Shown here: in pieces, positions 320 through 12,712 of the stretch
Numbering within the stretch: position 1 is the first letter of the stretch
Layout of the letters: each line of letters opens with the position of its first letter
From: Candidatus Tenderia sp.
GTDB taxonomy: Bacteria; Pseudomonadota; Gammaproteobacteria; Tenderiales; Tenderiaceae
Assembly (NCBI GenBank): GCA_031416075.1
Contig: JANOSY010000031.1
Location: forward strand, 1-64,000
Length of the DNA stretch: 64,000 nucleotides
Direction: 5' to 3'
The notes under the pieces: model-generated
The model's input: the letters and a program-made list of their open reading frames with translations, nothing else
Told to the model about the DNA's origin: nothing
Database searches by the model: none
Made by a program: the position numbers and the translations under genes

Positions 320-1651
320 TCATTTTGTAAGTAAAGGGATATAAATTAAATTTATACCAAGCTCTTTTTTGACATAAACCACCCCAATACAATTACATAT
401 AATACTATCAACCAATAGGGCGTATGCTAATCCAATCGCCCCAAACCTATTGATCAGAATGAATGCAAGAATAAGAGTTATTATCGTGCTTATTAATAAA
501 ATATTTCTTCTAATATGCTGTCTCCCAACCATATCTAGGAGCACCCCACTAGGGCCGGTCATCGAATTTATCAAATTGGCAAGAGATAAAACAACTAATA
601 TCATTTGACCACTATCAAACTCATTTCCAAATAAGCGCATTAACCAACCAGACAACACAATTGTAATAATTGATATAGTGCCAGTAGTCCAAAATATTAT
701 TTTAGAACTAAATCTAACTGTTTTTTTAAACTCGTTAATATTGTTCAAATGCAATTCTGAGAACTTCGGTGCTAATATTGTTGTCACTGCACTAAAAACG
801 AAGGTGGTTAGTGCCGCTAGTTGAAAAGCAATATTGTAAATACCTACTTCTGCCGGATTTGAGTAATATGCCAGAACGAATACAGCGACATTGCTTGACA
901 TCAGCATTAACAATATTGATTGGTACATTGTGAAAGATGTAGAGAAATATTTATTTTTTTTAGTTCCAATATCCACAACATTTTCTACTTTTTTTAAATT
1001 TATAGCACTCACAACATAGAAAAGACTGAATAAAAAAGTAACTAATATTGCTACTTCGTAAGTTATCACTGGCCAATACACATTGTAATTAAAGAATGTA
1101 ACTAGCAATAAAAACAATACAAGATTCAAAAATCTAATAAAAAACACCCTTAAAAACTCACTTAATTTTATCTTTTTTAGCCCCCTAATAAATTCAACAT
1201 ACAATAGGTTGAGAGCATAAATCGGGATGGAAAATGAGATAAAAATAAATATGCCAGATAACTGATCGTCTTTTAACAAAGAACTAGCTAGTTCTTTTGA
1301 AAAGATAGCAACAAGTAAAGAGATAAGCACAGAAAAAGCAAAAGTAATAAGACTATAATTAATCACTACTTTCTTTAATTCAGATATATGCTTCTTAGAT
1401 GCTAATTGAGCAGAAAATAGGATGATAGCTTGGTTGAATCCCAAAAGGCTAATCATTGATATTACGAGAATGAATTGAACTGCTATTTGATAAATGCCAA
1501 CTGCTTCTGCTCCATATTTGTTCGACAACGTTGCAATAAATACAAGCCCTACCAAGAGGCCAGCAATTTTTATCAAAATCGTTTCAAACGAGCCTCTAAG
1601 TATTTCTCTTTTATGGTCATCTAATAAAAGTATTTTAACTTTATTAATCAT
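320..1651 (-). CDS. Wzx-like polysaccharide flippase (MOP superfamily)
   Basis: 443 aa, many TM helices, 'YGAEAVGIY' and 'EVGIYNIAFQLA' flippase-type motifs; very AT-rich. Confidence 0.85.
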   Translation of the reverse strand: MINKVKILLLDDHKREILRGSFETILIKIAGLLVGLVFIATLSNKYGAEAVGIYQIAVQFILVISMISLLGFNQAIILFSAQLASKKHISELKKVVINYSLITFAFSVLISLLVAIFSKELASSLLKDDQLSGIFIFISFSIPIYALNLLYVEFIRGLKKIKLSEFLRVFFIRFLNLVLFLLLVTFFNYNVYWPVITYEVAILVTFLFSLFYVVSAINLKKVENVVDIGTKKNKYFSTSFTMYQSILLMLMSSNVAVFVLAYYSNPAEVGIYNIAFQLAALTTFVFSAVTTILAPKFSELHLNNINEFKKTVRFSSKIIFWTTGTISIITIVLSGWLMRLFGNEFDSGQMILVVLSLANLINSMTGPSGVLLDMVGRQHIRRNILLISTIITLILAFILINRFGAIGLAYALLVDSIICNCIGVVYVKKELGINLIYIPLLTK

Positions 1652-2035: not shown

Positions 2036-3550
2036 TTACCCATTTTTACGACCAATCTTGTCGACCATCCGCTGCCCCATCGCAACCAGGCGTCCTATAG
2101 GCCCACCAAAATTACCCATCTGTACGAGTCTGGCTACTGTGTAAACCCCAAACGCCAAGGTCAACATAATCGAGACGATAGTCGCCCACCAATAGATAGT
2201 ATTTAAAATAGCCACCAAGATACAAAGTGCTAATATGGATATAAACAAGCGCGTTATTTTTGGCTGCCATTTGAATTCAATACTACGTTTGGCAAGTAGA
2301 TAAACAAGCGGTAAATAAACGGCATAACACACCAAAAATGCGATGCCGGTGATTTTTAACCCAACGCTAGATGATAAACCTGCAATCAAGCCGCCCATCA
2401 GCAATAACACAACTGAATCTGACCAAAAGAATGCCTTGCCTGCACCCGCTGCTAAAATGGCAAAACCGATCGGCCAACTGGCCACTTTAAATACATCCCC
2501 GAGTATTTGCCAGCGCAGCACCTCTACAGCAGGCATAAACTCGGATGAATAGAGCAGATGAATGACCCATGGTGTTAAACCGATCATGGCAATGAATACC
2601 GGCGCACTGAGCAGCAGGGCTATTTCGGTCTGCTCGTTCATTAAACGCGTTGCTGCTTTGTGGTCTTTGATTACTGTGGTTAAACGCGGGTAGTAATCCG
2701 CCGCCATGGCTGCCAGCACAAGGCCTATATATTGCATCGAGATCGCCCAGGCCGCCTGAAAGTGGCCAAGCGATTCTGCACCAAGGGTATTGCCGACTTC
2801 TACCCGTATCCAAAGTTGTACCAAAGCGCCAACCAGCCCCGCGCCCATGAATGGAACACCCAAGCGCAACAGTGTTTGCCATTGCTGCGCCATTTCTCGT
2901 GTCGAGATATCTGAAGAGGTAACCTTGGGCAGGCGTGATACATACCAATGTCCCAATATAAAATTCACCAAGGGGCCGATAAGTACATAGGCCACCAAGC
3001 CCGCTTGACCCCACTGCCACAACAATGTCACTCCGAGTACAGAATTCAATACCGCGCCAAATACACTCAGGCGTGCCATATCACCGATACGGCGCATACC
3101 TTGTATCACTGCACCCTGTGATGCACTGGCAACGGATAGTGCTACTCCCAACGACAACCAACCCACGATATAAGCATGTTCTGATCCGCCCAGTACATAC
3201 ACCGCCAGCACTTCACGTAGTGACCAAACTACCAGCGCGCCTGCGCCAGCAAGCAATAAGGTTCCCCATAACATTGCACGTCGCACCACGGCCAGGGCAC
3301 GCTCATCCTCTTGACTCTGCGCTTCGGCAACCTGTCGCGCACCTATCGTTCCAATGCCCATAGTTGCCATGGCTGTGGCCGTTAACATCAAGCCACTGTA
3401 AAGGCTGACAAGTCCAATACCTGCCGGACCAAGCAACACCGCAATGATTTTGGTACGTACCAAACCAAATACAATGTTGATAACCGATGCGCCGCCAATG
3501 ATGGAGGAACTTTTTAAAATGCGCCGGTAGGATGTGACCTGTTCGGTCAT
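2036..3550 (-). CDS. wzx: O-antigen translocase (WzxE-like flippase)
   Basis: 504 aa multi-TM; 'KIIAVLLGPAGIGL' and 'GHFQAAWAISMQY...ADYYPRL' motifs; directly downstream of the amino-sugar genes. Confidence 0.88.
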   Translation of the reverse strand: MTEQVTSYRRILKSSSIIGGASVINIVFGLVRTKIIAVLLGPAGIGLVSLYSGLMLTATAMATMGIGTIGARQVAEAQSQEDERALAVVRRAMLWGTLLLAGAGALVVWSLREVLAVYVLGGSEHAYIVGWLSLGVALSVASASQGAVIQGMRRIGDMARLSVFGAVLNSVLGVTLLWQWGQAGLVAYVLIGPLVNFILGHWYVSRLPKVTSSDISTREMAQQWQTLLRLGVPFMGAGLVGALVQLWIRVEVGNTLGAESLGHFQAAWAISMQYIGLVLAAMAADYYPRLTTVIKDHKAATRLMNEQTEIALLLSAPVFIAMIGLTPWVIHLLYSSEFMPAVEVLRWQILGDVFKVASWPIGFAILAAGAGKAFFWSDSVVLLLMGGLIAGLSSSVGLKITGIAFLVCYAVYLPLVYLLAKRSIEFKWQPKITRLFISILALCILVAILNTIYWWATIVSIMLTLAFGVYTVARLVQMGNFGGPIGRLVAMGQRMVDKIGRKNG

Positions 3551-3552
3551 GC

Positions 3553-4650
3553 TTAAACTGCTGCTTTGAGCGCTGCAATCACAACTGATGTGCTCGCCTC
3601 ATCCAGGTGCGGCCCCATGGGTACACTGAGCAGTTGATTGGCCATCTGTTCTGCAATGGGATACTGGCCTTTGACGTAACCAGATGATGCATACGCTTGC
3701 TGTAGATGAGGCGGTATGGGGTAGTGGATCAGTGTGCCAATACCTGCTTCACCCAATTTTTTATGCAAGGCGTCACGCTGCGGGTGTTGCACGACATAAA
3801 GGTGCCATGCAGGTTCGGCCCATTCAGGTACGAAAGGCAGGGTGATTCCAATATTTGCCAGACCTGTTTGATAGCGGTTGGCAATCTCGGCCCGTCTTTC
3901 ATTCCATACATTCAACACATTGAGTTTGACGCATAGAGCAGCGGCTTGAATCGGATCAAGACGGCTATTAAAGCCGCGCACGTCGTTGATGTATTTCACC
4001 CGCGAACCGTAATTGCGCAATACTCGGATGCGCTCGGCAATTTCTGCATCATTGGTGGTGATCGCGCCACCATCACCAAATGCACCGAGATTCTTGCCGG
4101 GATAAAAACTCCACGCGACCACGTCGCCATGGGCACCTAGACGTTTGCCTTTGTAACGTGCGCCGTGTGCCTGGGCACCGTCTTCCAGCACTTTCAAACC
4201 ATGTTTGCGCGCAATCGCCAAAATCGAGTCCATGTCAGCGGGTTGGCCATACAAATGAACGGGCAGAATCACTTTGGTGCGTGGCGTAATCGCGGCTTCT
4301 ATCAGTGCTGGATCGATGTTGTAAGTTGCTACATCCGGCTCCACTGGAATCGGTGTTGCGCCACACTGGCAGACTGCCAGCCAGGTGGCGATGTAGGTGT
4401 TGCTGGGGACAATGACTTCATCACCGGCCCCTACTCCCAGCGCCAGCAGTGACAGATGCAGGGCATCCAGCCCATTAGCCAGCCCGACACAATGCTGTGC
4501 TTCACAGTAGGTTGCATATTCTTGTTCAAAGGCATCCACCTCTGCGCCAAGGATGTACCAGCCGGAGTCCAGTACGCGCTTAACTGCCGCATCAATTTCA
4601 GGTTGTAGTTCGAGGTAGGCGGCATGTAAATCCAGGAAATGAACACTCAT
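3553..4650 (-). CDS. fdtB: DegT/DnrJ/EryC1/StrS aminotransferase (dTDP-3-amino-3,6-dideoxyhexose transaminase)
   Basis: '[11 protein letters not shown]', 'PVHLYGQ', '[15 protein letters not shown]' PLP-Lys motif; next to the FdtA-type cupin. Confidence 0.88.
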
Positions 4651-5054
4651 TTTTTTATCGCTCTTATATATTCGTTGTAATCGCGGTAATAATCAGACTC
4701 ATCATATACGTTTGAAGCCAAAACCATACAAACCGAACCTGAAGAAAAATTATCCAGCTCACGCCACATCATCGGACAGATATAAAGCCCCTGATACGAG
4801 CGATTCAAATGGAATCGTTTTTTTTCATTACCCTCGTCCAAAATAACATCAAAGCTTCCCGACATCGCGATAATCAGCTGGTTCAGTCCTTTATGTGCAT
4901 GACCGCCACGCTCTGCGCCCCCTGGAACATCGTACAAATAATAGACACGACGTATATCGAAGGGAATGTGTTGACCACCTTCGATAAAGGTTAAATTTCC
5001 ACGTGGATCTGAAATTTTAGGCAAATCGATTATTTTGCACTGTTCTAAACTCAT
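4647..5054 (-). CDS. fdtA: dTDP-6-deoxy-3,4-keto-hexulose isomerase (FdtA/QdtA cupin)
   Basis: '[10 protein letters not shown]', 'RGGHAH', '[16 protein letters not shown]'. Confidence 0.9.
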
Positions 5055-5512
5055 ACTTGCCTCACAATTTTTGCCGGATTGCCAATCACCACGGCACCGG
5101 CAGGCACATCTTTTGTCACTACGGCTCCGGCCCCCACCATAGCATTCTCACCAATAGTTATACCGGGCAGGAGAGTCGCGTTTGCACCTATTGAGGCACC
5201 CGCTTTTACTACGGTTTGAAAAAACTCCTCTGGATACACCTTTGAGCGGGGAAACATGTCGTTGGTGAAGGTGGCGTTTGGTCCGATGAAGACGTTGTCT
5301 TCAATGCGCACGCCATCCCACAACTGCACGCCGCTTTTGATCGTAACGTTATCGCCTATCACTACATCGTTTTCGATCAAGACCTGTGCGCAAATATTGC
5401 AGTTATCTCCAATTTTTGCATTGGGAAATACAACACAAAATTGCCAGATGCGCGTTCCTTCACCAATAGTTTTGCTTTGTACATCCGCTAAAGGATGAAT
5501 TTGTGTTGTCAT
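5051..5512 (-). CDS. WxcM/QdtC-like left-handed beta-helix sugar N-acetyltransferase
   Basis: Hexapeptide repeats; '[19 protein letters not shown]', '[10 protein letters not shown]'; start moved to ATG at 5512. Confidence 0.85.
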
Positions 5513-5566
5513 TTTGTCGATCGTCTTTGAATTACGAAAAAACATCTTGCACGTTAATATCAATCA

Positions 5567-6577
5567 CTACGATGTTGGAATCACAGAGTCATTTATTTTT
5601 TCCCGAAAATCCATATAGGCTTCGACCAACCCAACCCTGAATGTAGTCGGCGCCTGCCACCCCTTATCAGCCAGTCGTGTGACATCAAGTAATTTACGCG
5701 GGGTACCATCCAGCTTGCTCGCATCAAACACCATTTCACCCTGGTAGCCCACTACTTCTTTCACGGCTTCTGCGAGTTCTTTGATGGTGAAGTCGGTTCC
5801 CACGCCAATATTGACTAGCGGTGCAAGCCCCAAGACAGAAGATTCATCGGGCGAACCGGCCGGCCAGAGCAGTATGGAAAATTTTTCGTCGGATAGATTC
5901 ATCAGGTAGACACAGGCGTCTGCCATGTCTTCGCTGTACAAAAATTCACGCCTTGGTGTACCACTACCCCAAACAGTTACCGTCGGGTTGTTGTTTGTTT
6001 TTGCCTCATGAAACTTGCGGATTAGTGCGGGTATTACGTGGGAATTCTCCGGGTGGTAGTTATCGCCTGGGCCATAAAGGTTGGTGGGCATGGCCGCGAG
6101 GTACTGGGTACCGTACTGCCGATTGTAGCTCCAGCACATTTCGATGCCGGCAATTTTCGCCAGGGCATAGGGGCGGTTGGTGGGTTCTAACGGGCCGGTG
6201 AGGAGATGTTCTTCCTTCATGGGCTGTGGCGCGTTTTTGGGATAGATGCAACTCGAACCTAAAAAGAGCAGACGTTTTATATTATTTTGCCATGCAGCGT
6301 GGATGATGTTTGTTTGTATCGCAAGGTTATCGCGGATGAACTCCGCTGGGTATTCATTGTTGGCATGGATGCCCCCCACCTTGGCGGCAGCCAGGAAGAC
6401 ATAGTCAGGCTTTTCCTGCGCGAAGAAGGTTTCGACGGCGGCCTGATTTGTTAAATCGAGTTCGGCATGGGTACGCTTGACGATGTTGTCATAGCCTTTT
6501 GCCTGAAGGTTGCACATGAGGGCAGAACCTACCAGGCCTCTGTGGCCGACGACGTAAATCTTGTCGGTAGTTTTCAT
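5567..6577 (-). CDS. fcl: GDP-L-fucose synthase
   Basis: 'GHRGLVGSA', '[11 protein letters not shown]', 'LGSSCIYPK', YxxxK ('YALAK'). Confidence 0.95.
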
Positions 6578-6581
6578 GAAT

Positions 6582-7667
6582 TTACTCGTGGTAGTCTTTG
6601 GCCGTATAGCCGTGTTTTTTGACTAGTTCGTCACGCTCTGCTGTCTTTAGATCTTCCCGTACCATTTCCGCAACCAGTTCACTAAAAGTGATTTTAGGCA
6701 CCCAGCCAAGTTTGGCCTTGGCTTTGGAGGGATCGCCCAGAAGGGTCTCTACTTCGGTGGGGCGGAAGTAGCGTGCATCTACGGATACAATGCAGCGACC
6801 ATTTGCGTCAAACCCTTTTTCGTCGACGCCTACGCCTTCCCAACGGATGGTTATGCTTAGCTCTTTGGCGGCGGCGTCGACAAAATCACGCACACTGTAC
6901 TGAATGCCCGTGGCTATAACAAAATCTTCCGCTTGCTCCTGTTGCAACATCAACCATTGCATTTCGACGTAGTCCTTGGCATGACCCCAATCGCGTTTGG
7001 CGTCCATATTGCCGAGGTACAGGCAGTCTTGCAGGCCGAGCTTGATACGGGCTAGTGCGCGGGTGATTTTACGGGTGACGAAGGTTTCGCCGCGAACAGG
7101 GGATTCGTGGTTGAACAATATGCCGTTGCAGGCGTACATGCCGTAGGCTTCGCGGTAGTTGACGGTGATCCAGTAGGCATAAAGCTTGGCGACTGCGTAT
7201 GGGGAACGCGGGTAAAATGGGGTGGTTTCTTTCTGTGGAATCTCTTGCACCAGCCCATACAACTCGGAAGTTGATGCTTGGTAGAAGCGGGTTTTTTTCT
7301 CAAGGCCGAGAATACGGATGGCCTCTAGGACACGCAGGGCTCCCAGAGCATCAGAATTGGCAGTGTATTCGGGTTCCTCGAAAGAGACCGCAACGTGACT
7401 CTGAGCTGCCAGATTATAGATTTCATCCGGCTGTACTTGTTGGATGATGCGAATCAGACTGCTGGAATCGGTCATGTCGCCATAATGCAGAATGAAATGC
7501 CGGTCACTTGCATGTGGATCTTGATAGATATGATCTACACGATCAGTGTTGAACGATGAGGCGCGACGTTTGATGCCGTGTACGTCATAACCTTTTTTCA
7601 ACAGGAATTCTGCGAGATAGGAGCCATCCTGCCCCGTAACGCCGGTGATAAGTGCCGTTTTATTCAT
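6582..7667 (-). CDS. gmd: GDP-mannose 4,6-dehydratase
   Basis: '[16 protein letters not shown]', '[13 protein letters not shown]', '[11 protein letters not shown]'. Confidence 0.97.
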
Positions 7668-7827: not shown

Positions 7828-9240
7828 TTAATAGGTGTTTTTCCCTGTGAATCCGGTAAACACAGTACTGAAAACAATCTTTATATCCCACCACAATGAC
7901 CAGTTACGGATGTAGTGCAGATCGTACTCGACCCGTTTTTCCATTTTATCCAGGGTATCTGTTTCACCGCGCCAGCCGTTTACTTGTGCCCAGCCTGTGA
8001 TTCCAGGTTTTACTTTGTGCCGTAGCATGTAGCCTGAAATGAGTTTGCGGTACTCTTCGTTATGGGCAACTGCATGTGGGCGTGGTCCTACGATGGACAT
8101 TTCACCTGTTAGTACATTGATGAATTGCGGCAGCTCATCTAACGAGGTGCGGCGCAGGAATGCGCCAAAAGGTGTGATGCGCACATCACATTTTTTGGCC
8201 TGCACAATACTGTCGCCATCGTCACACACTGTCATCGAACGAAATTTCCAGACTTTTATCGGTCGTCCATCCATTCCGTAGCGGCGCTGTTTAAACAGAA
8301 CAGGGCCAGGCGAGTTCAGTTTTACACCCGCTGCAATAAAGAACATGGGGATGATGATGAGCATGAGGATGAGTGATGAGAGCACAATGTCTTCAATACG
8401 TTTTAACCATCCATCGAGTCCCATAAAGGGGGACTCGTAAATACTGACGGTGGGTACTGGCCCTAGGTTGATCCAGCGTGAGTGCAGGAGGTCATACATT
8501 AAAAAATCGGGGACTAAGTATACGGAAGCGGTAGTGTCCGATAACTCTGATATCAACTTGACGATGTGCTCCTCTCCTTTCATGGAGATGGCGATATATA
8601 TGAGGTAATATTTGCCCTCTTTGGCACGTCGGATTAGCTCATTAAAATCACCCAGAATTGGCGCGGCCAGATTTTCAGCAACCCGCCCATCATCACCTTT
8701 GCGGTTGTCAAAATAACCTTTTAAATCTAATCCATAAGAGGGTGTCTCTTTAATTATCTGGCCAATACGCTGGCCAACTGTACCAGCACCGACAATCGCC
8801 ACAGAACGGGTGTTGTACCCTTTTGATCTATAGTGGGAGAGCAAGCCACGTACCGTTAAGCGCCACAAAATGAGCAGTGTTGGTGCAACAAAAAACCAAA
8901 GTCCAACAACAACACGTGAGTAATCCGCAGAGGACTTTAAGAAATAGGCTAACGAGGAGAGTATTGATACGGTGATACCCCACGCCACCAGCACAGGCCA
9001 TATCTGTTCTGATAGTGTGCTACCTCGCTGCGAACGGTAAAGGCCTGATTCACTGCCAACAAAGGCAAAACAGATAACCACCAGTAACGCTGCAAGCATA
9101 TACTGGTTTTCCACAGCAATGCCACGAGCAAAAAGTGCCACTAATAAAACCAGGAAGATGATGATGCCATCTGACATTTTAAAAACAAATGCCAGTTTTG
9201 ACCGATGGGGAAGAATCATGCCATTTGAGGAGTTATGCAT
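7828..9240 (-). CDS. wcaJ: Undecaprenyl-phosphate glucose phosphotransferase (priming glycosyltransferase)
   Basis: N-terminal TMs plus sugar-transferase domain: 'KFRSM', 'SLDELPQF.NVL.GEMSIVGPRP', 'KPGITGWAQVNG.RGETDT'. Confidence 0.92.
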   Translation of the reverse strand: MHNSSNGMILPHRSKLAFVFKMSDGIIIFLVLLVALFARGIAVENQYMLAALLVVICFAFVGSESGLYRSQRGSTLSEQIWPVLVAWGITVSILSSLAYFLKSSADYSRVVVGLWFFVAPTLLILWRLTVRGLLSHYRSKGYNTRSVAIVGAGTVGQRIGQIIKETPSYGLDLKGYFDNRKGDDGRVAENLAAPILGDFNELIRRAKEGKYYLIYIAISMKGEEHIVKLISELSDTTASVYLVPDFLMYDLLHSRWINLGPVPTVSIYESPFMGLDGWLKRIEDIVLSSLILMLIIIPMFFIAAGVKLNSPGPVLFKQRRYGMDGRPIKVWKFRSMTVCDDGDSIVQAKKCDVRITPFGAFLRRTSLDELPQFINVLTGEMSIVGPRPHAVAHNEEYRKLISGYMLRHKVKPGITGWAQVNGWRGETDTLDKMEKRVEYDLHYIRNWSLWWDIKIVFSTVFTGFTGKNTY

Positions 9241-9576: not shown

Positions 9577-10548
9577 CTAAATTGTTTTCACATCTGCTTC
9601 AATGCTTTTACAAATATTAACCAGATGCTCTTTACCACTGGGGTAAGTAATCCGTTTTATCTCTACAGACTCAAGCATTGATGCAAGCCTGTCTAATCTA
9701 TCTTTTTCAACATTCAGTGACCTGTATGCATCTGCCAACATACTATTTTGTAACAACACTATCATCGACTCTGACGCTGAAAGCTGTTCTATCCTTATCT
9801 CCGAATCGTTGCTATCCGTCCTATCCAGCAGATAAAGCCTCTTTAACCGACCACTTTTACTTGAGAAACGAAGTTCGTTTTGGGTACCAGATTCCACTAT
9901 TCGCTTTTCAAAACGATGATGAACACGTTGTAAAGTTTCAATATCCCTCACAAAGTGCTGGGCTACCTCTGGCCACATTCTCACTTGAGGCCAACCTGGA
10001 AAGACCTTTAGCCCCTCCGTAGTTTTATGTATGGCCATCATATCATCGCTCATCATGCCCATGCTACGCACCGCAAGCGCTGCGGTTAGTGTTGTTTTGC
10101 CTGTTTGACTCGGGGCTATTATACCAATGACCCCACGCTCGGTTTCAATTGCATTGGCATGAATGCACAGTACCCCGCGCATTTCCAGCCACAGACTCAG
10201 TCCGACTGTCTGAAGGTAATGCTCAAAGCTGGTACCCTCATCTTGCCATGCAACATTGATCTCATCGCCCAAGTATTGAAATGAGCCGGTGCCTTGACAC
10301 TTAATGTGCAACAGTTTTCCTGCCGACTCATCAAACAGCTCGACAACACTACTATATCGTTCACCTTGAGTTGAGAGACGCCAAATCGGTTTCTGCTGTG
10401 TCGGGACAAAGCACTCAGAGAAACTGAGCTTTAAAGACTCTATGTATTCGCCATCACAATCTAACCGGTCGGTCTCAGCTGGCTGGAATAGTCGCACACC
10501 ATGAAGGGGAATCGTGAAAATCCAGCTGGGTGACACAATCTTAGACAT
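9577..10548 (-). CDS. HPr kinase (HprK)-related Ser/Thr kinase, lasso-cluster type
   Basis: 'CIHANAI', Walker A 'APSQTGKTT', 'MMSDD', 'PGWPQVRMWP'; 36 nt downstream of the lasso-like precursor. Confidence 0.75.
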   Translation of the reverse strand: MSKIVSPSWIFTIPLHGVRLFQPAETDRLDCDGEYIESLKLSFSECFVPTQQKPIWRLSTQGERYSSVVELFDESAGKLLHIKCQGTGSFQYLGDEINVAWQDEGTSFEHYLQTVGLSLWLEMRGVLCIHANAIETERGVIGIIAPSQTGKTTLTAALAVRSMGMMSDDMMAIHKTTEGLKVFPGWPQVRMWPEVAQHFVRDIETLQRVHHRFEKRIVESGTQNELRFSSKSGRLKRLYLLDRTDSNDSEIRIEQLSASESMIVLLQNSMLADAYRSLNVEKDRLDRLASMLESVEIKRITYPSGKEHLVNICKSIEADVKTI

Positions 10549-10584
10549 GCATATGTCTTTATCGCAACACCCAGCTGCAAACTG

Positions 10585-10761
10585 TTAGCCCAGGAACGGG
10601 TTACGCTTTGTCTGGCCGCCTTGTTCATCAGGCACACTGCCCGCAAACCCTTGGGTCAACTCTGCCAGACTACCTACTTTTTTGAACTCTGGTTTACGAT
10701 AAGACTTCTTTGATACCGCTTCATCACCGTTATAAACCACATCATTAGTCGCCATTATCAT
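10585..10761 (-). CDS. Lasso RiPP precursor peptide (58 aa)
   Basis: GAGG RBS upstream of ATG 10761; leader 'YRKPEFKKVGSLAELTQ' fits YxxPxLxxxGxxxxxTx (F for L); core GFAGSVPDEQGGQTKRNPFLG with G1 and D8/E9. Confidence 0.75.
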   Translation of the reverse strand: MIMATNDVVYNGDEAVSKKSYRKPEFKKVGSLAELTQGFAGSVPDEQGGQTKRNPFLG

Positions 10762-10765
10762 TGTC

Positions 10766-11428
10766 TTAAGCCTCACTTTTAATAGTTGGCAGCTGTCTTT
10801 TAGCACGTGTGACAGCTAGGCCAAGGAGGCCTGCTGCAAATAACAATATTGTAGCAGGTTCTGGAATCGCATCGGTATCAGCCATAAACTGGAAGGTGTT
10901 GCCTGAAGCAAATCCTGTCACACCCCAATCAAGGGTCAACGAACCGTACAGGTCCGGTGCGCTATACACATTACTATACGAAAATGACCCCGGCGCATTT
11001 GTCAGGCCAGGTGTAAATACACGCCCTGGACCAGAACCTGGGGTCTCTTCAGCACCGAACATATTATCAAAAACAATATCCGCCATCAGGGCATCGATAG
11101 CGATTTTCATAAGAGAGTTGCCTGACGCATTGTTCAGTGTCCAAACCCCTAACAACTGACTTCCAGGTCCAAATTGACCAAATGTTTCACCCTGCTGGGT
11201 CAACGACCACCCGGTACCAAACGCTCCACCCGCATAGCCTTCTTGATAAGCTGGGGTTCCATTTGTGCTGGTAGTAACCCAAGTAGCAGTTTCAAATCCG
11301 CCGCCTGCAAAATATGCCGTTACATTAATGCCCGCCATATCAGCACCAGTGATATTGGATTTAATGACTGTAGAGTAAGCGGGGTTTACCCATGCAACCA
11401 AGGACAGTACCAGCAGTAGTTTTTTCAT
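10766..11428 (-). CDS. PEP-CTERM sorting domain protein
   Basis: Signal peptide; Gly/Thr/Ser-rich body; C-terminal 'IPEPATILLFAAGLLGLAVTRAKRQ' (PEP, TM, basic tail). Confidence 0.92.
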   Translation of the reverse strand: MKKLLLVLSLVAWVNPAYSTVIKSNITGADMAGINVTAYFAGGGFETATWVTTSTNGTPAYQEGYAGGAFGTGWSLTQQGETFGQFGPGSQLLGVWTLNNASGNSLMKIAIDALMADIVFDNMFGAEETPGSGPGRVFTPGLTNAPGSFSYSNVYSAPDLYGSLTLDWGVTGFASGNTFQFMADTDAIPEPATILLFAAGLLGLAVTRAKRQLPTIKSEA

Positions 11429-11488
11429 ATTTCACCCTATTATTTCATTGTTACTAAACATAGGCAATTGCCATTCGGTGCCATATAA

Positions 11489-11504
11489 TGCATTTTTTAC
11501 GCCA
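11489..11504 (-). promoter_or_regulatory. sigma-54 (-24/-12) promoter of the PEP-CTERM/lasso/kinase unit
   Basis: Minus strand TGGCGTAAAAAATGCA has GG-N10-GC spacing, 60 nt upstream of the ATG. Confidence 0.6.
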
Positions 11505-11577
11505 CAATAAAAACCACTCATAAAAACATGAAGTTAAAGACGGAAAGCATATTCCACAGTTGAAATCTTTATGCATC

Positions 11578-11594
11578 TGTAAAAAAAATCGACA
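11578..11594 (-). promoter_or_regulatory. Putative PEP-CTERM (PrsR-type) enhancer box
   Basis: 17-bp TGTCGATTTTTTTTACA (TGT-N11-ACA ending in TTTACA), 73 nt upstream of the sigma-54 site across an AT-rich spacer. Confidence 0.55.
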
Positions 11595-11815: not shown

Positions 11816-11889
11816 TGGAGGCTGAGGCCGGAATCGAACCGGCATTCACGGCTTTGCAGGCCGCTGCATAGCCATTCTGCCACCCAGCC
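11816..11889 (-). tRNA. tRNA-Cys(GCA)
   Basis: GGCTGGGTGGCAGAATGG...CTGCAAA...GGTTCGATTCCGGCCTCAGCCTCCA, 74 nt with CCA. Confidence 0.96.
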
Positions 11890-12008
11890 AGCGATACATG
11901 AAACACTATGACTTTGCTGCTTCCGCTAATAATACGCGCCACAAACAAACTGATGATTTTACAACTGTGTTGCCACCCCGAAAACATACCACCGAGGCAT
12001 ACTAAATT

Positions 12009-12083
12009 TGGAGCGGGAAACGAGATTCGAACTCGCGACCCCAACCTTGGCAAGGTTGTGCTCTACCACTGAGCTATTCCCGC
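12009..12083 (-). tRNA. tRNA-Gly(GCC)
   Basis: GCGGGAATAGCTCAGTGGTAGAGCACAACCTTGCCAAGGTTGGGG...TTCCCGCTCCA, 75 nt. Confidence 0.97.
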
Positions 12084-12104
12084 GCACCCTGTTAAGTGGC
12101 CGTC

Positions 12105-12132
12105 ATTATATAGCCTTTTTTATTCACGTCAA
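12105..12132 (-). promoter_or_regulatory. sigma-70 promoter of tRNA-Gly/Cys
   Basis: TTGACG-16nt-TATAAT followed by GC-rich discriminator GACGGCC. Confidence 0.7.
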
Positions 12133-12151
12133 CACCCACTTATATGTTTTT

Positions 12152-12712
12152 TTACACTTCTTCTTTACGCAATACTGGCCATGCCGCTTTCAGATAAATG
12201 ACCATGGACCAAAGGGTTAGAATAACAGCGGCGTAGAGGAAGATCATACCGAGCATGTGTATTGAAACACCTAGCAGCGGCGCGTCATAGAGCAGTATAA
12301 AAAGCGCTACCATCTGTGCGGTGGTCTTCCATTTACCCACATTTGAAACGGCTACCTGTGCACTTTCACCAATCTCGGCCATCCATTCACGGAGTGCTGA
12401 GATTGCAATTTCCCGACCGATAATCACGACTGTTGCGATGGTCATCCAGGGGGTGGGGTTTGCCTGAACCAATAGTATCAGCGCCGCCCCTACAATCAAC
12501 TTATCTGCCACAGGATCAAGAAACGCACCAAAGCGGGACATTTGATTCAATTTGCGCGCAAGGTAACCGTCAAGCCAGTCTGTGATGGCCGCTATACCAA
12601 AGATGATGGTGACAACTTCATTCACCCAGCTATAGGGCAGAAAAAAGATCACTACAAAGATGGGGATAAGGAGGATACGTAAATAGGTCAGGAGTGTTGG
12701 AATGCTGGTCAT
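12152..12712 (-). CDS. pgsA: CDP-diacylglycerol--glycerol-3-phosphate 3-phosphatidyltransferase
   Basis: 'TDWLDGYLAR...FGAFLDPVADK' motif; uvrC-pgsA-tRNA-Gly synteny. Confidence 0.96.
   Translation of the reverse strand: MTSIPTLLTYLRILLIPIFVVIFFLPYSWVNEVVTIIFGIAAITDWLDGYLARKLNQMSRFGAFLDPVADKLIVGAALILLVQANPTPWMTIATVVIIGREIAISALREWMAEIGESAQVAVSNVGKWKTTAQMVALFILLYDAPLLGVSIHMLGMIFLYAAVILTLWSMVIYLKAAWPVLRKEEV

Follow-up and report, generated by a model that had tools for sequence, protein, structure and literature searches.

The window analysed here is a 64,000-nucleotide stretch of DNA from a Candidatus Tenderia genome (assembly GCA_031416075.1, contig JANOSY010000031.1, hereafter C31). On its minus strand lie three genes that encode a PEP-CTERM surface protein, the predicted precursor of a lasso peptide and a kinase of the HprK/PEPCK fold. 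They are preceded by a promoter of the type found ahead of PEP-CTERM genes and followed by exopolysaccharide (EPS) genes. The parts of the system are as follows.

11578-11594, minus strand: PrsR-type enhancer, motif 1 (TGTC-N7-TTTACA), of the PEP-CTERM regulon
11488-11504, minus strand: sigma-54 -24/-12 site (GG-N10-GC), 73 nucleotides after motif 1
10766-11428, minus strand: PEP-CTERM surface protein gene, 220 amino acids (TIGR02595 22.3 bits, cut-off 16; PF07589 25.6 bits, cut-off 20.7)
10771-10774, minus strand: GAGG ribosome-binding site within the 3' end of the PEP-CTERM gene, 9 nucleotides ahead of the precursor ATG
10585-10761, minus strand: lasso precursor gene, 58 amino acids (lasso leader model NF033521 21.1 bits, cut-off 19)
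10588-10650, minus strand: predicted 21-residue core of the precursor, with Gly1, Ser5, Asp8, Glu9 and a conserved KRNP-F-x-G tail
9577-10548, minus strand: HprK/PEPCK-fold kinase gene, 323 amino acids (His130, P-loop 146-152, Asp168-Asp169)

An earlier description of the window, made by a model from the letters alone (the sequence-only reading), had reported three packed, co-oriented genes, and the distances were the same when measured again: the PEP-CTERM stop lies 4 nucleotides from the precursor ATG and the precursor stop 36 nucleotides from the kinase ATG. The ribosome-binding site that it placed inside the end of the PEP-CTERM gene is there, and translation of the precursor is probably coupled to that of the upstream gene. 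Its view of the peptide as a real lasso precursor agrees with a match above the cut-off of the leader model. The promoter elements that it noted proved to be a correctly spaced pair of a type conserved in homologs, and the families matched downstream of the kinase bear out its series wcaJ-gmd-fcl-fdt-wzx on the same strand.

The precursor leader is of the YxxP type and carries Tyr(-17), Pro(-14), Gly(-8) and Thr(-2); Tyr(-17), Pro(-14) and Thr(-2) are unchanged in 45 of 45 unique homologs. To describe the core, 29 unique sequences were collected from the PEP-CTERM side with a pattern confined to the leader. Gly1, Asp8 and Glu9 are unchanged in all 29, Asp8 and Glu9 being candidate ring acceptors for Gly1. 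Fourteen of the 21 core positions are invariant, and mean identity is 88% whereas four-fold degenerate third codon positions agree in just 40% of comparisons, which denotes strong purifying selection on a peptide whose synonymous sites are near saturation. The set collected from the kinase side gave 91% identity and 39% four-fold agreement; six of its positions were dictated by the pattern used to collect it. Cores of ribosomally made peptides with post-translational modifications (RiPPs) are usually more variable than their leaders. Over 22 complete units, mean identity in the core was 88%; leader and kinase reached 75% and 46%, and the PEP-CTERM protein 42%. That the core hardly varies implies that its binding partner or its chemical role is fixed. 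Its last residue is Gly in all 46 kinase-side and all 29 PEP-side unique cores, none of which ends in Ser. Ser5 is invariant and is the sole fully invariant Ser or Thr in the PEP-side set; Thr14 is replaced by Ala in two of these 29 cores, both of which have Ser13. A search of 1.84 billion representative sequences with the precursor profile returned nine short family proteins at E<1e-12, a few with more divergent cores, beyond which the matches drop to other lasso-like leaders. The profile also matched P0200, a protein of 199 amino acids with four lasso-like leader repeats that is possibly a multi-core precursor.

None of the lasso cyclase, the RiPP recognition element (RRE) and the B2 protease was found inside the window, as the sequence-only reading had stated, and its suggestion that the missing machinery lay left of position 1 found support on a second contig of the source genome, C33, placed there by synteny. 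On C33 are the genome's only PqqD/RRE match (B1; G000:C33:12065-12334, 65.8 bits against PF05402), whose best relative of solved structure is TbiB1 (E 8e-10), and its single B2 match (NF033537, 69.3 bits, cut-off 33), with the Cys and His motifs. An asparagine-synthetase-like gene (G000:C33:14266-16137) lies 1.5 kb from B2. The best NCBIfam family of its product is NF033535, the model for lasso cyclases, at 313 bits under a cut-off of 525; ATP-pyrophosphatase motifs are present and there is no N-terminal Cys. In most long loci, homologs of this cyclase-like protein are encoded next to B2 and the precursor; the five other strong PF00733 matches of the source genome are far from any B gene. The sequence-only reading had named the absence of a cyclase and B proteins from the genome as fatal to its proposal; with both B matches and a candidate cyclase on C33, this condition did not refute it. 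The contig also encodes an MsbA-like exporter, a PHP phosphatase, an NTP_transf_5 nucleotidyltransferase and epsL-like, wza, wzc, vpsP-like and O-antigen-ligase-like proteins.

Both C31 and C33 begin in dispersed repeats. In a close relative, G001, whose kinase is 94% identical, all lasso parts lie on one contig over about 37 kb, in the order PEP-CTERM-precursor-kinase-wcaJ, different glycan genes, nucleotidyltransferase and export genes, exporter-B1-B2, cyclase. Another genome, G002, has the same span from kinase-wcaJ to wza. The lasso genes thus stand at both ends of a single Wzy-type EPS locus, and by synteny C31 and C33 would be joined accordingly in the source genome. Two further observations concern the cyclase end. 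A Fic-family gene (L021:12880-14022) stands between B2 and the cyclase; in G001 and elsewhere this position holds other inserts. The cyclase gene (L021:14266-16137) starts 4 nucleotides after the ABC ATPase gene of a solute-uptake operon, which we read as being of the iron type, as if it were expressed by read-through.

The arrangement of PEP-CTERM gene, YxxP peptide, kinase and wcaJ, first pointed out in the window, recurs widely among kinase homologs. A kinase profile built from 58 homologs retrieved 79 metagenomic loci; the best 46 (34-68% identity) formed the main set and the remaining 33 were treated separately. The core is present in 41 of the 46, so that the sequence-only reading passed on a second count that it had set itself, the company of a similar peptide; in all five loci that miss it the kinase sits at a contig edge. 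The usual order is exporter-B1-B2, the cyclase on the opposite strand, then PEP-CTERM, precursor, kinase and wcaJ, often with NTP_transf_5. More distant kinases mostly lie near B1, B2 or cyclase homologs, without this PEP-CTERM family. A rearranged form is seen at L145/L054, with the kinase on the opposite strand, facing the precursor, and wcaJ upstream of the exporter.

Among genomes, matches to the PEP-CTERM profile occur in 35 of 401 from another gammaproteobacterial family, f160 (probably Alteromonadaceae, from the named homologs), and in 4 of 401 from its order. The precursor lies directly downstream of 28 of the 39 PEP-CTERM genes examined, one weak fragment being excluded, and the two-gene unit is present in 27 of the 401 f160 genomes. 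B2 scores over the cut-off in 27/27 genomes with the unit, in 0/3 with the PEP-CTERM gene only and in 1/20 others. NTP_transf_5 accompanies the unit in 26 of these 27 genomes, and in 21 of them it is no more than 30 kb away; the three PEP-only genomes have one copy each, on a different contig from the PEP-CTERM gene. Strong kinase matches in a class-wide sample were confined to 2 of 400 genomes, both of the source genus. A query of the genome collection with the single kinase retrieved one relative only, and searches centred on G113 found nothing in six genomes. Close homologs of the kinase or the PEP-CTERM family occur in Alteromonas, Paraglaciecola, Colwellia, Aestuariibacter and Aliiglaciecola, which are generally culturable. 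We regard this as very probably a genuine lasso-peptide pathway.

All three motifs of HPr kinase (His, P-loop, Asp-Asp) are invariant in the kinase alignment, and a confident predicted model of the window protein matches the PEPCK/HprK fold, the best fold matches being PEPCKs. Identity with the HPr-rel-A kinase was considered and rejected (25 bits against a TIGR04352 cut-off of 200). Matches in a plasmid collection were distant: five, all below 30% identity. One point of the sequence-only reading needed correction: the system is not of the paeninodin type, to which it had referred for the kinase, as the core lacks a C-terminal Ser. Most characterised lasso kinases require this residue (PMC8498205; here and below, published systems are described from excerpts of the cited papers). 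Phosphorylation would thus have to be internal. A precedent is BsfK, which phosphorylates a ring Ser with the aid of B1 (PMC10368454). With Ser5 invariant and Thr14 replaced in some cores, Ser5 is the best candidate, and the phosphorylation site is most likely this ring residue, in a bsf-like mode. Decoration with sugar is predicted on the precedent of PsmN, which is required for the addition of one or two hexoses to the phosphate of pseudomycoidin (PMC6993621).

Downstream of the kinase, after a gap of 336 nucleotides, the window continues with these genes.

7828-9240, minus strand: wcaJ, undecaprenyl-phosphate glucose phosphotransferase, the first EPS gene (TIGR03023 551.7 bits, cut-off 410.75)
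6582-7667, minus strand: gmd, GDP-fucose pathway
5567-6577, minus strand: fcl-like gene, GDP-fucose pathway
5051-5563, minus strand: acetyltransferase gene
4647-5054, minus strand: FdtA/WxcM-like isomerase gene
3553-4650, minus strand: DegT-family aminotransferase gene
2036-3550, minus strand: Wzx-type flippase gene, first of two
320-1651, minus strand: Wzx-type flippase gene, second of two (31% G+C)

The link to wcaJ recurs in other loci. In 34 of the 39 that have room for it, this gene is found no more than 3 kb beyond the kinase, and at L035 (1416-2930) a wecA-like initiating transferase takes its place; the glycan genes beyond vary from locus to locus. Where the kinase does not directly follow the precursor, in five genomes, it still precedes wcaJ in 5/5. 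At two of six displaced or rearranged kinases scanned, a motif 1 and sigma-54 site of its own precede the kinase, the kinase-wcaJ module lying about 20 kb away.

This constancy invites the view that the kinase, perhaps with NTP_transf_5, serves the polysaccharide pathway by acting on a sugar or on WcaJ, and that the lasso peptide is left unmodified and is merely co-regulated. The missing C-terminal Ser would fit, as would the fold matches, PEPCKs being enzymes that act on small molecules. We nonetheless find this very unlikely, given that the core accompanies the kinase clade in 41/41 metagenomic loci with upstream room, that Ser5 never varies, that more distant kinases mostly keep company with B1, B2 or cyclase homologs and that BsfK, with B1, provides an example of a kinase directed to a ring Ser (PMC10368454).

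The lasso locus occupies different chromosomal sites in different lineages and is accompanied by EPS genes in 11 of the 12 genomes with 20 kb of context; in the twelfth the kinase still precedes wcaJ. This bears on a second alternative, in which the peptide would be an antimicrobial or antiphage lasso with a conserved target, carried as a variable island in the EPS locus, and the PEP-CTERM protein would confer immunity at the surface or its gene would do no more than lend a promoter. Patchy distribution and losses suit such a role, and Popov et al. 2026 (PMC13381572) take patchiness of paeninodin and LPP clusters as typical of conflict genes. Moreover, many lasso peptides are antimicrobial (PMC6993621), and the locus adjoins tRNA genes in the source genome. 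Yet conservation is higher in the core than in the leader of the same precursor, wcaJ stays linked through rearrangements and across differing sets of glycan genes, and the EPS association holds while the chromosomal site changes, all of which make this explanation improbable.

The promoter ties the unit to a known regulon. The combination of motif 1 and a sigma-54 site was described for PEP-CTERM genes by Haft et al. 2006 (PMC1569441); when the 400-nucleotide upstream region was shuffled 20000 times, 6 of the shuffles contained motif 1 with a properly spaced sigma-54 site. Of the 70 PEP-family genes that have enough upstream DNA, 62 carry motif 1 ahead of them, and 58 of these 62 have a spaced sigma-54 site, at distances that cluster near 64, 74, 84 and 95 nucleotides, about 10 nucleotides apart. 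A better-looking TGGCAC site nearer the PEP-CTERM gene is wrongly spaced by one missing base and is probably not the sigma-54 promoter. Scans for sigma-70 promoters and terminators inside the unit gave no clear signal (nine promoter-like sites, 8.3 expected). The source genome encodes PrsR (TIGR02915, 727.6 bits, cut-off 502.6), two exosortases and 13 PEP-CTERM matches, so that the exosortase and the regulator sought on the strength of the sequence-only reading were both found.

Control by PrsR also raises the thought that the peptide is an exported signal. It would bind a conserved receptor such as PrsK and so act in feedback on the EPS/PEP-CTERM regulon, while the role of the PEP-CTERM protein would be to capture or present it; with PrsR present, transcription from the PrsR promoter would then close an autoinduction loop, and a core nearly invariant across genera is what a common receptor might demand. 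Against this, the recognised or listed cluster genes include no recurring gene for a receptor or regulator, PEP-CTERM genes greatly outnumber the peptide in the genomes sampled, and peptide signals usually differ from species to species. We consider such a role improbable, to the same degree as an antimicrobial one.

The PEP-CTERM protein consists of an N-terminal hydrophobic helix (likely a signal peptide), an acidic beta-sandwich and an IPEP sorting signal. It scored above the cut-off of none of the named NCBIfam PEP-CTERM families, and Foldseek found no match at E<=0.001 to its model (pLDDT 91.7). The best VIA match (Z 5.7, root-mean-square deviation 5.0, 130 residues aligned) was to beta-sandwich domains of carbohydrate-active enzymes; a Z of this size is what common arrangements can give, and we draw no function from it. 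An ESM Atlas search turned up a single unnamed cluster, at 0.76, which counts as a lead and no more. A complex prediction for the PEP-CTERM domain with precursor residues 29-58 scored 0.20, below the mark of 0.32, and speaks neither for nor against an interaction.

The genetic tie between this protein and the precursor is close. In a tree of 69 PEP-family proteins, seven stand-alone proteins (support 100/98) split from a clade of 62, and 58 of these 62 are encoded directly before a precursor. The two genes were duplicated as a pair at L060 and L068, every pair with its own motif 1, and relocated as a pair at L194. In genome G1080 (L194:9383-10178; L197:17033-17674) the pair lies on a different contig from the machinery; this genome also has a stand-alone PEP-CTERM paralog and two precursor copies in its main cluster. 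Six of the seven members of the sister stand-alone clade (L146, L147, L148, L190-L193) have the same promoter, outside EPS loci. Some lasso-linked PEP-CTERM proteins are longer (L041:8506-9753, 415 amino acids; L062:2089-3558, 489 amino acids), with an extra acidic region and a second domain ahead of the sorting signal.

Comparison with described systems places the locus near several of them. The bsf cluster of Bradymonas sediminis (PMC10368454) matches it in gene content (A, B1, B2, C, D, kinase and nucleotidyltransferase) and has, like the window system, a Gram-negative marine host, a YxxP leader and no C-terminal Ser. The ring Ser that its kinase modifies with the help of B1 has its counterpart here in the predicted target Ser5. 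However, the bsf genes are packed into 7.2 kb and their precursor has Ile(-2) and Ser3, whereas the window system has Thr(-2), Ser5 and a different near-invariant core; Ile or Val at -2 characterises the bsf subfamily, and Thr occupies this position in 45/45 homologs. Unlike bsf, the window system includes a dedicated PEP-CTERM gene, has predicted PrsR/sigma-54 control and is dispersed about an EPS locus of the Wzy type. The main text of the bsf paper does not contain the word "polysaccharide".

The paeninodin and pseudomycoidin clusters of Bacillota (PMC8498205, PMC6993621) likewise tailor a lasso peptide with an HprK-type kinase and a nucleotidyltransferase. Their kinases need a C-terminal Ser, which the window core lacks, and paeninodin RREs favour WxxP leaders and are confined to Bacillota (PMC13381572), in contrast to the YxxP leader and gammaproteobacterial relatives found here. 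The window system was therefore not counted in this group, with which it shares the kinase and the nucleotidyltransferase. No PEP-CTERM partner of these clusters appears in the excerpts of PMC8498205 and PMC6993621.

Popov et al. 2026 (PMC13381572) describe paeninodin-like and LPP clusters within capsular polysaccharide loci of Bacilli. These clusters and the window system both place an RRE, an HprK-like kinase, a nucleotidyltransferase and an MsbA-like exporter in polysaccharide loci, so that a link between RiPPs and polysaccharides is not new in itself. The clusters of Popov et al. are co-induced with an EPS gene, and the authors give their biological role as unknown, a part in biofilms being only speculated on. 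They are Gram-positive, and LPPs are linear with highly variable C-termini, in contrast to the nearly fixed core and the surface-protein gene found here; neither "Proteobacteria" nor "Pseudomonadota" occurs in the main text of that paper.

The HPr-rel-A system (TIGR04352/TIGR04353) also combines an HprK-like kinase, a PqqD-like chaperone and NTP_transf_5 with an upstream motif 1. The source genome has such a cassette on contig C13 (L144:1315-4400), with a TIGR04352 kinase (373 bits), a TIGR04353 chaperone and NTP_transf_5. Unlike the window system it has no cyclase, B2 or lasso precursor. The genome thus has two RRE/HprK/nucleotidyltransferase systems with the same type of upstream box. The C13 cassette further contains an open reading frame of 243 amino acids with an SRRKF-containing N-terminal leader, and a motif-1 site at C13:1098.

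With the PEP-CTERM/exosortase/PrsKR system (PMC1569441), finally, the window shares the sorting signal, exosortases, PrsR and both promoter motifs. Most PEP-CTERM genes form single-gene operons (PMC1569441), whereas the window gene heads a RiPP operon and belongs to no named family. A description of a PEP-CTERM-linked lasso cluster was not found in the literature searched, which covered few subscription papers and no supplements. Genome-mining catalogues may well list these precursors already, and automatic annotation probably labels them as lasso leaders. As far as this literature goes, the Gram-negative version, the dedicated PEP-CTERM clade, the predicted PrsR/sigma-54 control and the near-invariant core are new.

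Our best reading is that the product is a phosphorylated, probably sugar-decorated lasso peptide made within the PEP-CTERM/EPS programme. PrsR with sigma-54 would transcribe the PEP-CTERM gene and the precursor together from the promoter seen in the sequence. The RRE (B1) would present the precursor to the enzymes, and the kinase would phosphorylate an internal hydroxyl residue, most likely ring Ser5, judging by conservation and the bsf precedent. By analogy with their families, B2 would then cut off the leader, the cyclase would join Gly1 to Asp8 or Glu9 and the ABC exporter would ship the product, to whose phosphate the NTP_transf_5 enzyme would probably add sugar, like PsmN. For the core of the window, the calculated monoisotopic masses are 2143.05 in cyclised form, 2223.01 with a phosphate added and 2385.06 with both phosphate and hexose. 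Linkage to EPS and PEP-CTERM genes makes it most likely that the product and the co-expressed PEP-CTERM protein act together on the cell surface or within the slime matrix, and that it is not a diversifying antibiotic. We judge the statement as a whole, that a complete lasso pathway is built into the PEP-CTERM/EPS programme of marine Gammaproteobacteria and that its product acts at the surface or in the matrix, to be moderately probable.

A number of observations weigh against this reading. The two halves of the lasso system lie on different contigs in the source genome, and their join rests on synteny. The stand-alone PEP-CTERM clade likewise has a PrsR-type promoter; this promoter is generic to PEP-CTERM genes, and the precursor may merely be using a convenient one. 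In 11/11 cases scanned, a search for motif 1 ahead of the ABC-B1-B2 operon found none, and the same held for the source genome's cyclase gene. NTP_transf_5 is present in 9 of 20 genomes without the system. Three genomes (G1075, G1087 and G1134; loci L164, L165 and L173), natural loss variants, retain a lasso-clade PEP-CTERM gene but lack both a precursor next to it and a B2 above the cut-off; in G1075, wcaJ follows this gene directly. A stand-alone paralog of the lasso-linked protein exists in one genome. Thus, the protein can persist without the peptide. Conversely, seven extra precursor copies have no PEP-CTERM gene beside them. From its patchy spread the system is not needed for EPS or PEP-CTERM biology generally. 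In addition, the loci are related, several being near-duplicates, so the counts are not independent and describe a pattern rather than a statistical test.

A bolder reading can be offered tentatively, and we think it rather doubtful: the lasso peptide might be a protease-proof structural connector of the Gram-negative slime layer, its Ser5 phosphate joined to a sugar or polysaccharide that the genes around it produce and its invariant KRNP-F-x-G tail docked on the dedicated PEP-CTERM protein, so that EPS is tethered to the cell. If so, a RiPP would serve as a building part, and the HprK/nucleotidyltransferase RiPPs in polysaccharide loci of Bacilli and Proteobacteria would have a common purpose. 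Phosphorylated lasso peptides are described as having no known natural role (PMC13381572). How PEP-CTERM proteins hold EPS on cells is likewise an open question (PMC1569441, PMC9850573). One of them, PepA, raises cell-bound EPS in Aquincola (PMC9850573). The locus joins both questions. It also predicts a new clade of ring-Ser kinases and gives NTP_transf_5 a defined candidate substrate.

As to the borders, the first 330 nucleotides of the window, where C31 begins, are a dispersed repeat with copies at several other sites of the genome. Next to it, the flippase gene at 320-1651 stands out by its low G+C content, compared with 53% for the whole genome. On the upstream side the system is bounded by genes that are not part of it.

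11816-12712, minus strand: tRNA-Cys, tRNA-Gly and pgsA

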